Positions 34,843 to 61,238 of a stretch of DNA of 64,000 nt are shown one piece after another. Made by a program: the position numbers and the translations under genes. This stretch comes from an uncultured Methylomirabilota bacterium (GTDB taxonomy: Bacteria > Methylomirabilota > Methylomirabilia > Methylomirabilales > 2-02-FULL-66-22): positions 4,704,001 to 4,768,000 of the forward strand of contig OY970067.1 in NCBI GenBank assembly GCA_963705305.1, given 5' to 3'. The notes under the pieces were generated by a model. That model searched no databases. It saw only the letters and a list, made by a program, of their open reading frames with translations, and had not been told where the DNA came from. Each line of letters starts with the position of its first letter. Position 1 is the stretch's first letter.

Positions 34843-34926
34843 TGGTGCGAGAGGGGGGAGTTGAACCCCCACGGGTCGCCCCATCCCGCCCTAAACGGGA
34901 CGCGTCTGCCATTCCGCCACTCTCGC
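34843..34926 (-). tRNA. tRNA-Leu(TAG)
   Basis: GCGAGAG/CTCTCGC acceptor, TCCCG-TT TAG GG-CGGGA, long variable arm, CCA. Confidence 0.9.
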
Positions 34927-35025
34927 GGCAGGCACAGGACCCCCGCGACCTCGCCCGGCCGCAGGGTGCATCGGACGCCCGACGTGCGTTCAGTCATCTC
35001 CTCCGACGGTTCGGCATCCCTGGTG

Positions 35026-35101
<76 letters not shown>

Positions 35102-35119
35102 ATCCGTGCACTCAATCTG

Positions 35120-35195
35120 GGAATGCGGATTTCCGATTGGGGAATGAATCTTCACGCTCTCCCGGTTCCGCACTCCGCGCGCTGCATTCCGCAAT
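35120..35195. repeat. convergent heptamer arrays (TTCCGCA family) in tRNA spacer
   Basis: GGAATGCGGATTTCCGATT... then TTCCGCA CTCCGCG CGCTGCA TTCCGCA. Confidence 0.6.
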
Positions 35196-35200
35196 AGATC

Positions 35201-35276
<76 letters not shown>

Positions 35277-35388
35277 CCCATCTGCACCGACCAGTTTTTC
35301 GATGACCACATCCCAATGCACACTGGCCGGAGAGTTGCCTTGCCCACGTGATCATTGGAAACTGGTCATTGGTCATTCACCCCGTCGC

Positions 35389-35465
35389 TGGCGCGCCCGG
35401 AGAGAATTGAACTCCCGACCTGCTGGTTCGAAGCCAGCCGCTCTATCCAACTGAGCTACGGGCGC
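35389..35465 (-). tRNA. tRNA-Arg(TCG)
   Basis: GCTGG-CT TCG AA-CCAGC, CCA. Confidence 0.93.
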
Positions 35466-35492
35466 CTTGCCTCCTCCCCGGCCCGGGGCCGC

Positions 35493-35570
35493 TGGGGTGA
35501 ACGGAGGGACTCGAACCCTCAACCCCTGGAGCCACAGTCCAGTGCTCTGACCAATTGAGCTACGCTCACC
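35493..35570 (-). tRNA. tRNA-His(GTG)
   Basis: CTGGA-CT GTG GC-TCCAG, G-1:C73, CCA. Confidence 0.95.
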
Positions 35571-35589
35571 ATGCCCCGCTGCGGGTCAT

Positions 35590-35652
35590 GGAATGCGGAT
35601 TTCGGCATAAGGCGCCCTGCGCGCCCCTCTGCATTCCGCACTCCGCAATCCG
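35590..35652. repeat. convergent heptamer arrays (TTCCGCA family) in tRNA spacer
   Basis: GGAATGCGGATTTCGG... CTCTGCA TTCCGCA CTCCGCA ATCCG; shares GGAATGCGGATTTC with 35120. Confidence 0.6.
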
Positions 35653-35662
35653 AGACTGTCGC

Positions 35663-35740
35663 TGGCGCGCCTGGGGTGATTTGAACACCCGACACACGGC
35701 TCCGGAGGCCGTTGCTCTATCCGGGCTGAGCTACAGGCGC
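35663..35740 (-). tRNA. tRNA-Arg(CCG)
   Basis: ACGGC-CT CCG GA-GCCGT, CCA. Confidence 0.95.
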
Positions 35741-35748
35741 AAATTCAT

Positions 35749-35833
35749 AATGACCGATTCCCAATGACAGAATGACCGGTGGGGACTCTTCAGCTCCTGA
35801 TTGGTCATCGCTCTTTGTGTCATTGGCCATTCG
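35749..35833. repeat. convergent heptamer arrays (AATGACC/TCATTGG family)
   Basis: AATGACC..AATGACA GAATGACC then TTGGTCATC..TCATTGG CCATTCG; related array at 35352-35378. Confidence 0.5.
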
Positions 35834-35878
35834 ATTCTCTCGTCCGGTTGGGGCGATCCTGCAACACCCTCTGCCCTA

Positions 35879-35955
<77 letters not shown>

Positions 35956-38000: not shown

Positions 38001-39431
38001 TCAGGACCCCACGGCGGCGGGAGCGCGGCCCCGTCCAACCCGCCGCTCGTACCGAACCTTGTATTTGGCGATCGCATCAAAGAGCGCCTCGGCGATCTGC
38101 TGCCGGTACGACTGCCTTTGAAGCTTTCGCTCCTCCTTGGGGTTGCTGATGAATGCGCTCTCCACCAGGACGGCCGGCATCGCCGCCGTGGCCAGGACGC
38201 GGAACGGTCCGGACTTTACGCCGCGGTTCTCCCCTTTGAGGAGCTTGTCCAGGGAGCCCAGCAAGAGCTCCGCTAGCCGCTCCGACTCCTTCATGTCCCG
38301 GCTGACCGCCATGTCTGCGAGGGTAGTCTTCAAGAGGGATTCCTGATCTGCTCCGGTCGCCCCGTCGGTCTGGATGACCAGGTTCTCACGCTGCGCGGAG
38401 GCGCGCGCGTCGTTGTCCGATGGCTCGCGGGTAAAATAGTATGTCTCGAACCCGTCCGTCCCGCGCTGCCCGCCCGCATTCATGTGGAGACTGATGAAGA
38501 AATCGGCCTTGGCGCGATTCGCAAAGGCGGTTCGCTCCTCCAGGGGCACGAAGACATCCGTCGTGCGCGTCATGAGAACGCGGACCCCCAGGCGGTCTTG
38601 GAGCAGCTTGCGGAGGCGGAGCGCCAGGTCCAGGACCACCTCCTTCTCCATGAGGCCCGTGGGTCCGATGGCCCCGGTGTCGTGACCCCCGTGTCCGGGA
38701 TCCAGGACGATGGTCAGCGGAGCGGCTTCCTCGGCGGGCCCCTCTTCCGGCGTGGCGGGAGACGCCTGGTTCGCGGCCGCCGCAGTTCCGGACGCTCGAG
38801 GCGTCCGTTCTTGGGGCGCCGCAGAGACCCGGGGAGCACCCGCAGCCGGTGCGGTTGCCCGAGGAGGCGCCTCGGGCGGCGCAGGGGCCGTCACGGGGGC
38901 GGGCGGCCTTGCGTGAGCCGTCTCAGGAGGACCGGCGTGGACATCCACGACGATCCGGTCCGGGCCCGCCAGGCTGAAGCTCTTCACGGATGTGCTGCGG
39001 GAATCGCAGAGCAGCGTGATCTCTGCGCCACCGGGACGTTGGGTCGTTCGGATCGACCTCACGATCCCGTCTTTCAGCCCGATTGAATGGATCGTCGAGG
39101 CCAGCAGACCCCCCGGAACAAGAATCTGCACACTGTCAGCCGTCCGGCGCTGCACCGACCATTCCCACGGCCTCGACATCTCGAGCACGATCCGGGTATA
39201 GGTCGGATATCTTCCGACGCGCAGCTTCGTAAGCGTAACCCCGTCCGCCCTCCCGGCCCTCACAGTCTGCCGGGCCGCGGCACTTGCCGCGCTTCTGTCC
39301 AATCCGGGGCGCGCCCCTGGGGCCGCCCAGCCCAGTTGAGCGGCAGCACATGCCAGGACTGCGGCTGAAACGAGGATCGGCGTCCAGCCATGACAGAAGC
39401 GCCAACGTTCTCCGCCCGTGTGGCAAATCAT
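38001..39431 (-). CDS. N-acetylmuramoyl-L-alanine amidase (AMIN + Amidase_3); start uncertain
   Basis: YTRIVLE, PDRIVVD, LDPGHGGHD, EKEVVL, SLHMN, AVLVESAFISN. Confidence 0.92.
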   Translation of the reverse strand: MICHTGGERWRFCHGWTPILVSAAVLACAAAQLGWAAPGARPGLDRSAASAAARQTVRAGRADGVTLTKLRVGRYPTYTRIVLEMSRPWEWSVQRRTADSVQILVPGGLLASTIHSIGLKDGIVRSIRTTQRPGGAEITLLCDSRSTSVKSFSLAGPDRIVVDVHAGPPETAHARPPAPVTAPAPPEAPPRATAPAAGAPRVSAAPQERTPRASGTAAAANQASPATPEEGPAEEAAPLTIVLDPGHGGHDTGAIGPTGLMEKEVVLDLALRLRKLLQDRLGVRVLMTRTTDVFVPLEERTAFANRAKADFFISLHMNAGGQRGTDGFETYYFTREPSDNDARASAQRENLVIQTDGATGADQESLLKTTLADMAVSRDMKESERLAELLLGSLDKLLKGENRGVKSGPFRVLATAAMPAVLVESAFISNPKEERKLQRQSYRQQIAEALFDAIAKYKVRYERRVGRGRAPAAVGS

Positions 39432-39553
39432 TTAATATTTCCGAGAGGTTCAGATGCTATCTGTAACACACTCCTTGCATCCTGTCAAACAACTCCTGAT
39501 AAATTCGCCATAAAGAACAGAAATGGGGACGATCAGCTGGCCAACCAATCAAA

Positions 39554-39591
39554 GCAAAAGGCCCCACGCCATTCGGCGTGGGGCCTTTTGC
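39554..39591. terminator. bidirectional intrinsic terminator closing the rRNA operon
   Basis: GCAAAAGGCCCCACGCC-ATTC-GGCGTGGGGCCTTTTGC directly after 5S. Confidence 0.9.
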
Positions 39592-39598
39592 CTAATTA

Positions 39599-39716
39599 TC
39601 CCGGCGGCGACCTACTTTCCCACCCGGTTGCCCGAGCAGTATCATCGGCGCTGGAGGGCTTAACTGCCGTGTTCGGGATGGGAACGGGTGTGTCCCCTCC
39701 GCCATGGCCACCGGAA
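39599..39716 (-). rRNA. rrf: 5S rRNA
   Basis: ACACCCGTTCCCATCCCGAACACGGCAGTTAAG and GAAAGTAGGTCGCCGCCGG on minus strand; ends approximate. Confidence 0.95.
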
Positions 39717-39745
39717 ATCGATACGTTTTCCTATGCGGCTGCGCT

Positions 39746-40075
39746 CTAGCGGCCGTCGTGGCCGACCGTCACCAGCTCCCGGATTCGAGCAAACTGCTTT
39801 TTGCCGAGAATCCGGCGCACTACCACGTCATCCAGATTTCGGTACGGACGGTTCCGCACCAGCCACTCCGCCGCTTGCGGCGAGATCCCCGGCAGACGAC
39901 TGAGCTCCTCTACCGTGGCGCGGTTCAGGTCGATCTTCCCTGCCGTCGGAACGCTTGAGGGTGCCGTCGCCGGCGCCGAGGTCTCCCTCCCCCCAAGCTG
40001 GGCGGTGGCATGCCACGCCAGGCCCGCCATCAATATCAGTGCGACAATGGCGACCACTACCAGAGCGCGCTGCAT
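39746..40075 (-). CDS. ComEA-like helix-hairpin-helix protein with N-terminal TM/signal, in the 23S-5S spacer
   Basis: 109 aa: hydrophobic N-terminus, Ala/Pro/Ser linker, KIDLNRATVEELSRLPGIS..A..LV.NRPY.NLDDV HhH pattern. Confidence 0.85.
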   Translation of the reverse strand: MQRALVVVAIVALILMAGLAWHATAQLGGRETSAPATAPSSVPTAGKIDLNRATVEELSRLPGISPQAAEWLVRNRPYRNLDDVVVRRILGKKQFARIRELVTVGHDGR

Positions 40076-40140
40076 AGTGAAAAGAGAATAGCGATTGGGG
40101 TATCCACCCTGCTTCCCGGATAGACGATCCATAAGGAAAA

Positions 40141-43159
<3,019 letters not shown>

Positions 43160-43200
43160 ATACGGATCGGTGAAACAGAGTGGATACCCAATCGCTATTC

Positions 43201-43717: not shown

Positions 43718-45281
<1,564 letters not shown>

Positions 45282-45387
45282 AAAAAACTCGCTCTCTCAT
45301 GCGAGAGATCTCGGACCACCCCGTCCTTGCGGACGGGTGTGGAATTGTGCGTGTGTCCACCCACAAGCCAGTAGCAATGATATTCGA

Positions 45388-45545
45388 TTGTCAGAGAACA
45401 GAAATGGCGGGCTGAGATGCCCCCGCCACATAATGTAGAACAACTGCCGCGAAGCTGTCAAGGTCTCTCGGAAGAAACCCGATATCCGGCAAGACCCTGT
45501 TTTTTACCAGTACTTCATAGAATTGTCAAGCCTTTTTTTCTTTCC
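45388..45545 (-). promoter_or_regulatory. rrn tandem promoters and leader boxA
   Basis: TTGACA (45524-45529)-N17-TAAAAA with A-rich UP tract; TTGACA (45456-45461)-N18-TACATT; boxA-like TGTTCTCTGACAA at 45388-45400. Confidence 0.7.
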
Positions 45546-52828: not shown

Positions 52829-53152
52829 GGAATATCCTCCCTCCTCCGTGTCCTTTTACAGGGCAGGTCCGACATTTCGGGCCGGCCCGTCGTCCCCCCT
52901 CCATCTTCCCGGGCACCGCCGGTCGAGCGCGCAGGCGATCCGCGTGGTCCGATGGCCCGCTGGCCGCGCGCCCATCCGGCGGTCCGGGACGCCGGCAGCA
53001 CCGCCAGCGTGACCCAGCCACACAGGCCGGGCCTCTCGAGGAATCATGCGCAGGGACGGATGAACTTCAGGACAGAGAAGGGCTGGAACGAGGATCAGGC
53101 CGGCGCTAGGCCGGCCTGCCGGGCGGGAACGTATCCTGTGCTGAAAAAGATG

Positions 53153-53341
53153 GAACCCCTACCCTTGTGCCGTGTGCCGTTCCTTGTTTGAACCTGGAAA
53201 ACCAGGTGGGAATCCCGCAAGCGCCTTAGGCTTCCCTTCCGCCTGAACGGACGGGCCTGCTCACGGCGTCCTGAGGAGGATCCCCCTTCTGAGGGTGTTG
53301 GCTCAAAAAGCGTTACGGCATCACGCGCACGGTAGGGGTTC
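53153..53341 (-). ncRNA. ssrS: 6S RNA
   Basis: about 190-nt rod closed by GAACCCCTACC/GGTAGGGGTTC, central TGAGCCAACAC..CCCACC..GGTTCA; directly downstream of zapA. Confidence 0.85.
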
Positions 53342-61163: not shown

Positions 61164-61238
61164 TGGTGGGCACGGGTGGTTTCGAACCACCGACCTCTTG
61201 CGTGTCAAGCAAGCGCTCTCCCCCTGAGCTACGCGCCC
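61164..61238 (-). tRNA. tRNA-Val(GAC)
   Basis: CTTGC-TT GAC AC-GCAAG, CCA. Confidence 0.95.

Follow-up and report, generated by a model that had tools for sequence, protein, structure and literature searches.

Bacterial ribosomal RNA (rRNA) operons are untranslated, antiterminated units, and the spacers between 23S and 5S are regarded as short non-coding linkers. In Escherichia coli, RNase III cuts the helix that flanks 23S, and RNase E trims the 9S precursor of 5S rRNA. Mixed operons of stable RNAs and messenger RNA (mRNA) are known from the same organism, two examples being thrU-tyrU-glyT-thrT-tufB and secG-leuU. Earlier notice of protein genes in rRNA spacers concerns bacteria of the Candidate Phyla Radiation (CPR) only, in which a protein gene on the same strand between 23S and 5S was counted within one operon (2021, PMC8172020). 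According to that report, the spacer gene is often a homing endonuclease, the genomes are ultra-small, no mechanism is given and the operon status is left open (PMC8172020). Here we describe a 109-codon open reading frame (ORF) between 23S and 5S in the rRNA operon (rrn) of an uncultured Methylomirabilota bacterium. It was found in a stretch of 64,000 nucleotides (nt), hereafter the window, which is C1:4704001-4768000 of a 5.65-Mb genome consisting of the single contig C1. A full-text literature search, judged by titles and the openings of abstracts, returned no description of this gene or of a 23S-5S spacer protein gene in Methylomirabilota.

The main finding is that this spacer appears to hold the gene of an exported ComEA-like protein that would be transcribed from the rrn promoters and whose message would be released from the rRNA precursor (pre-rRNA), a reading to which we give a probability of about 0.6. 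The window contains a complete rRNA operon, the only one of the genome, on its (-) strand (Rfam scan; Table). 5S gives one match in the whole genome, and the 711-nt stretch from 23S over the ORF to 5S occurs once. A model that had seen only the letters of the window and a list of its ORFs (the sequence-only reading) had reported an intact 109-codon ORF on the strand of rrn, ending about 30 nt before 5S, with the sole visible terminator after 5S. Coordinates and translation agree with this description: the ORF is intact, runs from ATG at 40075 to TAG at 39748-39746 and nearly fills the 426-nt spacer, and 30 nt (39745-39716) separate it from 5S. In keeping with a single transcript, a sigma-70-type consensus scan of the sense strand turned up zero promoter-like and zero terminator-like sites from the 23S end to 5S, and the stability of the strong hairpin with U-run past 5S was matched by 0 of 200 shuffles. 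Since the single-copy 5S lies downstream, rRNA-level transcription must cross the ORF, and since the ORF sits exactly between the 23S helix and 5S, a promoter of its own could lie only within rRNA or helix sequence. A longer frame from GTG at 40156, inside 23S, was rejected because stops close the extension in several relatives; the apparent conservation of 'GGYPNRYS' in this extension arises because the 3' strand of the processing helix is read as protein. It is the codon at 40075, opening the M-[RK]-R motif, that is conserved as the start.

Selection on the ORF was measured with 15 sequences (105 pairs) by the Nei-Gojobori method. In the helix-hairpin-helix (HhH) domain the mean proportions of non-synonymous (pN) and synonymous (pS) differences are 0.26 and 0.77, and the median ratio of the corresponding rates (dN/dS, which the sequence-only reading had suggested computing) is 0.17, far under 1 (33 of 105 pairs with usable dS). 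In the N-terminal helix and linker, mean pN is 0.60, mean pS 0.68 and median dN/dS 0.86 (70 of 105 pairs usable). Conservation of the HhH domain at codon positions 1, 2 and 3 is 0.755, 0.854 and 0.529, with saturated synonymous sites. Codon usage points to the same frame, with a log-likelihood of -3.91 per codon against -3.77 +/- 0.23 for the genes of the genome and -4.1 to -4.8 for the other five frames. The absent Shine-Dalgarno (SD) motif in the ORF leader is ordinary for this host, since few genes of the genome carry one: GGAG or GAGG occurs at -18 to -4 in 26% of 343 genes with an unambiguous start, compared to 10.5% at a control position. Judged by these substitution and codon patterns, the ORF is a bona fide, selection-maintained protein gene.

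Residues 46-102 of the product match Pfam HHH_3 (PF12836) over profile positions 4-64 of 65 with 42.4 bits (cut-off 27), and this match overlays a weaker one to Pfam PsbU (PF06514; 29.3, cut-off 24.5). A profile of the family matches the HhH repeats of EEPD1 (9YI2), the Thermus 'ComEA-related protein' 2DUY (1.9e-10) and the ComEA entries 8DSS and 8DFK of Geobacillus/Bacillus, as well as many PsbU chains (2e-8 to 2e-3). In an AlphaFold2 model (mean predicted local distance difference test score, pLDDT, of 73.6), residues 3-27 form a helix, residues 26-44 are disordered and four helices at 55-98 (pLDDT ~90) make up a compact (HhH)2 fold. Its top Foldseek match in the PDB is again 2DUY, with a target-normalised template-modelling (TM) score of 0.80 and a root-mean-square deviation of 1.2 A over 56 columns at 36% identity. 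The N-terminal hydrophobic helix, the linker and the ComEA-type HhH domain of the sequence-only reading are thus seen in the alignment, in the HHH_3 score and in the model. Of the profile matches to be expected from that reading, the one to HHH_3 was obtained and those to the NCBIfam ComEA models fell below their cut-offs. The positive-inside rule is textbook knowledge, and an N-terminus of the form M-[RK]-R followed by ~20 hydrophobic residues occurs in 14 of the 15 aligned members and in a diverged copy from family f8, one member having MKW; A-x-A-Q is found in five of the nine members of genus g1 in the alignment, the window included. By inspection, the N-terminus looks like a Sec-type signal peptide or a membrane anchor of a putative exported protein. 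The HhH domain is basic, with a net charge of ~+5 (hand count from the translation), and the most likely role of the protein, which is distinct from the canonical ComEA, is to bind nucleic acid (DNA) non-specifically in the periplasm.

Canonical ComEA, a DNA receptor of natural competence, has two hairpins of the G-hydrophobic-G type, and short periplasmic forms are found in Gram-negative bacteria. The genome of the window encodes its own canonical ComEA (162 amino acids, ~C1:4.579 Mb), which has the hairpins LPGVGP and VPGIGP and a YREVHGPF insert, and a ComEC-type gene (PF03772, 224 bits) lies at C1:3443319, ~1.3 Mb from the rrn ORF. With both encoded elsewhere, the ComEA cut-offs missed and the second hairpin degenerate, the rrn protein cannot be taken for the ComEA of this organism. 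In common with ComEA it has a putative signal or anchor at the N-terminus and a linker that leads to the (HhH)2 domain at the C-terminus, with HHH_3 above cut-off and a predicted fold like that of 2DUY. It differs in the second hairpin (VLGKK instead of G-I-G), in a short 'NRPY' loop in place of the 'YRxxxGPF' insert of the genome's canonical ComEA and in the location of its gene, inside rrn and not beside competence genes; its DNA binding is a prediction. PsbU, the 12-kDa extrinsic subunit of photosystem II, is likewise a small protein of exported type with an HhH fold, and PF06514 lies above its cut-off; the equivalog cut-off is missed, however, and the PsbU matches are weaker than the ComEA-type ones.

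Free-standing homologues of like architecture were found in the sister family f9, in 129 of 159 genomes at E <= 1e-8 and with at most 88 bits. None of the seven f9 loci checked lies near rRNA, and no shared neighbour was recognised at six loci, for which ORF lists were compared with no family search. Three g1 genomes (G005:C6, G002:C390 and G020:C1; loci L101, L102 and L104) carry an f9-type free-standing paralogue besides the rrn copy, with the motif ...RPYKRKDELV.KKVVP.ATY..IKD...; among the HhH matches found in the genome of the window there are the rrn copy and the canonical ComEA only. Candidate homologues in family f4 were rejected, the weak matches being canonical ComEA genes. Because free-standing homologues of like architecture exist, the rrn-embedded gene appears to make up a subfamily of its own within a family of small periplasmic HhH proteins that occurs throughout the phylum. 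The basis for treating the rrn-embedded copies as one putative clade consists solely of the gap in hidden Markov model (HMM) scores (>=116 versus <=88 bits) and the motif differences.

The protein search covered 41 related genomes, 28 of which gave some HhH match. Among the best 15 places outside the window, 14 lie between the 23S 3' end and 5S (Rfam); the fifteenth (L018) has 5S downstream on a contig that starts too near to show 23S. An alignment of 15 orthologues (A1) was turned into a profile and run over 251 genomes of the phylum. It yielded 22 places with >=116 bits, all in families f1 (genus g1), f2 and f7, the next score being 87.6 bits. Seven of the top places were further ones, all in f7; six of these have 23S and 5S on both sides, and L052 has 5S on a contig that ends before 23S. 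The diverged f8 copy occupies a 380-nt spacer of the near-complete genome G041, its stop lying 7 nt before 5S. Altogether the ORF is found directly upstream of 5S in 24 genomes of four families (f1, f2, f7 and f8), 22 times between 23S and 5S and twice limited by the contig, with protein identities among same-site copies down to 32% and a stop-to-5S distance of 13-70 nt in 14 relatives. The tallies of the 251-genome search and of the 5S survey include the unpublished genomes G217 and G050, on which no particular claim depends. Among the best 80 metagenomic loci, 77 have 5S downstream and 78 a same-strand 23S end upstream; four of the five missing flanks (two 5S and both 23S) fall where just 2-42 nt of flank are present. 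The presence of the ORF in the 23S-5S spacers of relatives, for which the sequence-only reading had proposed to look, is thereby established in genomes and metagenomes alike. In one 1333-nt metagenome contig (L156), a 23S end is followed by a g1-type ORF that passes after codon 98 into unrelated coding sequence, without 5S; the contig is probably chimeric and possibly a rearranged locus. Relatives carry the label 'DNA uptake protein ComE-like' in JGI pipelines, and an exact look-up of P0024, the protein of genus g7, returned no record.

The start of the gene touches the processing signals of 23S. Upstream of 23S, a hairpin is followed by the element GCTCTTTGACAA and then by GAATAGCGATTGGGTATCCAC..., and the 3' flank contains the complement ...GGTGGATACCCCAATCGCTATTC, which extends to 40086. 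GCTCTTTGACAA and the leader element GTTCTCTGACAA, which differ at two positions, are boxA-like in the sense of the E. coli consensus. The boundaries of 14 operons were located by blastn. Both the boxA-like element before the helix and the helix itself were present in 15 of 15 operons compared, ORF-less ones included, with a single base change in one boxA. The consensus of six g1 operons has 32 pairs between the flanks, of which 20 are invariant, six show one-side changes and six are compensatory, two of the 32 containing a non-standard cell. The flanks of 23S form a classical long-range processing helix that is supported by covariation in g1. This helix ends 10 nt before the ATG in g1 and at the ATG in f8. 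In g7, per-sequence cofolds place the AUG in an internal loop and pair codons 2-5 with the conserved GCGAUCCG of the 5' flank in three of five operons and partly in a fourth.

Transcription was followed at L082, the orthologous locus in a complete g7 genome. Fifteen runs recorded as RNA, from seven studies, contain the L082 stretch, and four runs of two studies were aligned. In run X1, a 363-nt contig corresponds to L082 348-710 (5S and two thirds of the ORF) and a second one to L082 739-1101 (the ORF start and 254 nt of 23S), each with 0 mismatches; X2 contains the same pair. In run X6, from the second study, a 455-nt contig spans the whole spacer and overlaps 5S by just 23 nt and 23S by just 16 nt. 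The ORF-5S contigs have a depth of 134-668; past the terminator the depth is 5-10, and in each of the four runs it is 0 over the first 50 nt behind 5S, which argues against DNA carry-over and for termination after 5S. The location of the ORF inside the rrn transcription unit, as the sequence-only reading had it, is in line with these data: no separate signals were found, and the g7 RNA contigs join the ORF to 5S and to 23S. The breaks between ORF-5S and ORF-23S contigs in study P1 (near L082 672-739) were rejected as RNA ends, since contigs show no ends. Likewise, the joints 410->901 and 434->840 of L082 (runs X4 and X6, sediment), which connect 5S almost directly to 23S, were rejected as splicing and most likely stem from contigs of co-occurring relatives with short ORF-less spacers.

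The history of the gene is written in the length of the 23S-5S spacer. It measures 360-470 nt in 16 ORF carriers (the window, 14 relatives and the f8 copy of G041), and in operons without the ORF it is 56-64 nt in f4 (five genomes), 55-56 nt in f5 (three genomes), 70-111 nt in f9 (four genomes) and 76 nt in the g1 genome G013. A spacer of 160 nt in the g1 genome G014 (L066) holds relics only, namely the start ATG CGA CGC (the first three or four codons) and the last dozen or so codons (...KQFARIR...). A tree of 23S and 5S rRNA with 28 rows, many of them partial, groups G013 and G014 in a clade (100/99) nested in ORF-bearing g1; the deep branching of f8+f2, f4, f5 and f7+g1 is unresolved, and ORF presence requires a minimum of two state changes. 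As G014 retains both ends of the gene, the loss is an internal deletion that was completed in G013. In G014, ATCGCTATTC, with which the processing-helix strand ends, occurs a second time directly before 5S; this duplicate is treated as a one-off. An origin from a mobile element was rejected, since direct repeats flanking the ORF are absent from 15 spacers; no transposase was found nearby. The simplest reading would be one old capture of a paralogue into rrn, followed by long retention and occasional loss, and the gene has probably resided in the 23S-5S spacer since before the divergence of f1, f2, f7 and f8. The passenger that the sequence-only reading had offered as its alternative, if understood as a recent arrival, does not fit an old resident of four families that was lost once.

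Some side observations were made on the rRNA genes of the ORF-less families. At L080 (G131) and L081 (G130) of f9, ~1390 nt of DNA cover Rfam 23S positions ~1835-2925 (~1090), which implies a ~300-nt insertion or intervening sequence in the 3' half of 23S; G131 has a very long branch in the rRNA tree. In f4, L076 (G049:C93) is a weak 5S-like match (63 bits) with no 23S within 1 kb upstream, and the unpublished G050:C8 contains several 5S-like matches on one contig; these may be unlinked or extra 5S-like genes.

A mechanism can be proposed from these elements. RNA polymerase would start at the rrn promoters, carry the boxA antitermination modification and pass through the ORF on its way to the only 5S gene, giving one message copy per ribosome's worth of rRNA. 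Cleavage of the helix, presumably by RNase III, would release an ORF+5S RNA of ~0.55 kb, the coding counterpart of the E. coli 9S precursor. With the helix out of the way, ribosomes would initiate on the short, pyrimidine-rich leader that lacks an SD motif, and trimming at the 3' end would free 5S. The product would be exported to the periplasm and bind DNA, its output following ribosome synthesis, which may tie DNA uptake to ribosome synthesis. A stronger version holds that translation is licensed by rRNA processing, on an RNA that is part mRNA and part 5S precursor, and that export of the DNA binder is proportional to the ribosome-building flux; this version is offered tentatively and is rather unlikely. 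If it were true, the helix would mask or abut the start codon and the message would be translatable only after the RNase III cut. Extracellular DNA capture, for nucleotides, phosphate or uptake, could then be coupled to the demand of rRNA synthesis, and ribosome biogenesis would be wired directly to the periplasm by a regulatory link that Methylomirabilota has kept for a very long time.

A number of points weigh against an exported DNA binder made from the rrn transcript. The RNase III cut is assumed by analogy, and translation after processing, export and DNA binding are steps that we infer. DNA binding is uncertain because the NCBIfam ComEA cut-offs are not reached (TIGR01259 comE, 26.7 versus 152.35; TIGR00426, 22.3 versus 53.1) and the second hairpin is degenerate (V-L-G-K-K or V-L-G-R-K), the first being a near-invariant L-P-G-[IM]. 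The N-terminus of the g7 protein has no clear AxA cleavage site and so could be a membrane anchor and not a cleavable signal, and throughout the family the N-terminal helix and linker keep their character with an almost unconstrained sequence and the near-neutral dN/dS given above. The predicted position of the g7 start codon inside the helix rests on per-sequence cofolds, and the g7 consensus fold is weak (10 inter-flank pairs, 0 compensatory, six with non-standard cells). The locus studied for RNA belongs to a sister genus and not to the window organism, and the RNA data are contigs only, without 5' ends, strand or true levels. The promoter scan covers the sigma-70 consensus only and could miss a promoter concealed by the 3' end of 23S or by the helix. 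At least one sublineage (G013 and G014) can do without the gene, and in G010 (L018, G010:C23), a metagenome-assembled genome of 76% completeness, the copy is frameshifted within the first HhH motif region (~ELSRLPG), being either a pseudogene or an assembly error. The contig L156 is counted here as well.

The chief competing explanation places a cryptic promoter within the 3' end of 23S or within the helix DNA, from which an independent mRNA of the ORF, with or without 5S, would be made at a level untied from rRNA synthesis. It is distinctly unlikely and without positive support. The ORF-5S contig is deeper than the ORF-23S contig (668 versus 64 in X1, 134 versus 62 in X2) and the scan has the limit just named, but contig depths cannot rank parts of a gene, and rRNA depletion, or a processed ORF-5S species that is stable, would account for the same gap equally well. 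Moreover, the 10 nt between helix and ATG in g1, and the ATG in or at the helix in g7 and f8, leave little room for a promoter; the consensus scan reports no promoter-like site on the sense strand from 23S into the spacer, RNA contigs bridge the ORF and 23S, and the single 5S gene requires rRNA-level transcription through the ORF anyway. Another rival accepts the gene and its transcription and questions its product, which would not bind DNA and would be either a PsbU-like structural subunit docking on a periplasmic or membrane complex or a binder of another polyanion. Such a role is possible, if on the unlikely side. It draws on the Pfam PsbU score (29.3 versus 24.5), on the many PsbU chains that match profile and model, on a second hairpin without the G-x-G of DNA-binding ComEA and on the canonical ComEA already encoded in the genome. 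Yet the top matches in sequence and fold are of ComEA type (2DUY, 8DSS), the NCBIfam PsbU equivalog NF002708 stays at 39.3, far under its cut-off of 85, and the domain is basic. Methylomirabilota is known as a non-phototrophic phylum, with no known photosystem context.

Two further explanations deny the gene a lasting function. The deletion in G013 and G014, the frameshift in G010 and the near-neutral N-terminal half could point to a passenger or mobile insertion that reached rrn recently, or to a functionless pseudogene in decay; this reading is very improbable given the same site in four families at identities down to 32%, the two state changes on 28 rows of the rRNA tree, the strongly purifying selection on the domain and the 15 spacers lacking flanking direct repeats, with no transposase nearby. 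It is hardly credible that the frame stays open by chance in a non-coding, GC-rich spacer conserved for RNA structure, or that the ORF is an assembly artefact. GC-rich DNA does yield long open frames on both strands of the window, and the spacer is partly constrained as RNA by the processing helix, but third-position variation, saturated dS with low dN, frame-specific codon usage and the free-standing homologues of like architecture elsewhere in the phylum all argue for a coding sequence. The sequence-only reading had pointed to misassembly as a danger; identical junctions occur in 24 independent assemblies, of which G000, G055 and G041 consist of one contig or little more, and they recur in RNA contigs and at 75 of the 80 top-ranking metagenomic loci.

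Table. Features of the rRNA operon, from upstream to downstream, in positions of the window
Feature	Position	Strand	Evidence or remark
Upstream promoter-like site of rrn (TTGACA, 17 nt, TAAAAA)	45501..45529	(-)	by eye
Second promoter-like site (TTGACA, 18 nt, TACATT; 10/12 matches)	45432..45461	(-)	consensus scan
Leader boxA-like element GTTCTCTGACAA, GC hairpin before it	45388..45399	(-)	by eye
16S rRNA	43724..45285	(-)	Rfam, 1612 bits
Two spacer tRNA genes; anticodon loops GAT (Ile), TGC (Ala)	43492-43419 and 43345-43273	(-)	Rfam; anticodons from sequence
Hairpin (43236-43217) and boxA-like GCTCTTTGACAA (43214-43203), directly before 23S processing helix	43203..43236	(-)	
23S processing helix, 5' strand	43158..43200	(-)	cofold/consensus fold
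23S rRNA	40142..43157	(-)	Rfam, 2921 bits
23S processing helix, 3' strand; core CGGGAAGCAGGGTGGATACCCCAATCGCTATTC (40118-40086)	40086..40141	(-)	
Pyrimidine-rich 10-nt leader TCTTTTCACT, without Shine-Dalgarno motif	40076..40085	(-)	
Coding sequence of the 109-residue protein	39746..40075	(-)	residues ~1-27 putative signal peptide or anchor, ~28-45 linker, 46-102 (HhH)2
Stop-to-5S linker, 30 nt, A/U-rich at its 3' end	39716..39745	(-)	
5S rRNA, only copy of the genome	39599..39715	(-)	Rfam
Intrinsic terminator-like hairpin and U-run, closing the operon	39546..39598	(-)	-40.5 kcal/mol, z -6.5

The promoter-like site at 45501..45529 went unreported by the consensus scan because its rule demands T at the last position of the -10 element. 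The first gene past the rrn terminator, 38001-39431 (-), encodes 476 amino acids, the C-terminal half of which resembles an N-acetylmuramoyl-L-alanine amidase (translation by eye). Rfam also reports a cluster of eight tRNAs at 34846-35955 (-), ~3.6 kb downstream of the operon, a 6S RNA gene at 53152-53341 (-), ~8 kb upstream of it, and an additional tRNA at 61167-61238.

What is described here is a protein gene resident in the rRNA operon across several families of a non-CPR phylum and under clear purifying selection, in a group that includes a genus sampled by RNA-seq studies of bioreactors and sediments. As the start codon touches the helix, the locus offers a natural and testable system for the birth of an mRNA from pre-rRNA and for SD-less initiation on an RNase III product. 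What it means to hard-wire a periplasmic protein of DNA-binding type to ribosome synthesis is a further question. Pipelines that mask rRNA operons may miss the gene, and the length of the rRNA spacer carries phylogenetic signal in the phylum because gain, loss and relics of the gene are recorded in it.

The pre-rRNA of the window resembles that of E. coli in that the flanks of 23S form a long helix right after boxA and the segment from helix to terminator holds 5S, an architecture that the ORF-less relatives share with a spacer of 55-160 nt. In the present case the '9S-like' segment differs from the E. coli one in its length of ~0.55 kb and in carrying a 109-codon frame that starts beside the helix or within it; where and by which enzymes it would be cut is presumed from E. 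coli. As in the mixed operons, an mRNA and stable RNAs would share one primary transcript and be parted by processing. The E. coli cases join tRNAs with mRNAs, whereas here the coding sequence lies between two rRNAs, under rrn promoters and antitermination. Compared to the CPR spacer genes (PMC8172020), the host is a 5.65-Mb genome of free-living type, and the protein can be assigned to a known fold family, of which free-standing paralogues exist. The gene is conserved in four families, its start codon contacts the processing helix and RNA contigs from g7 support its co-transcription with the rRNAs.

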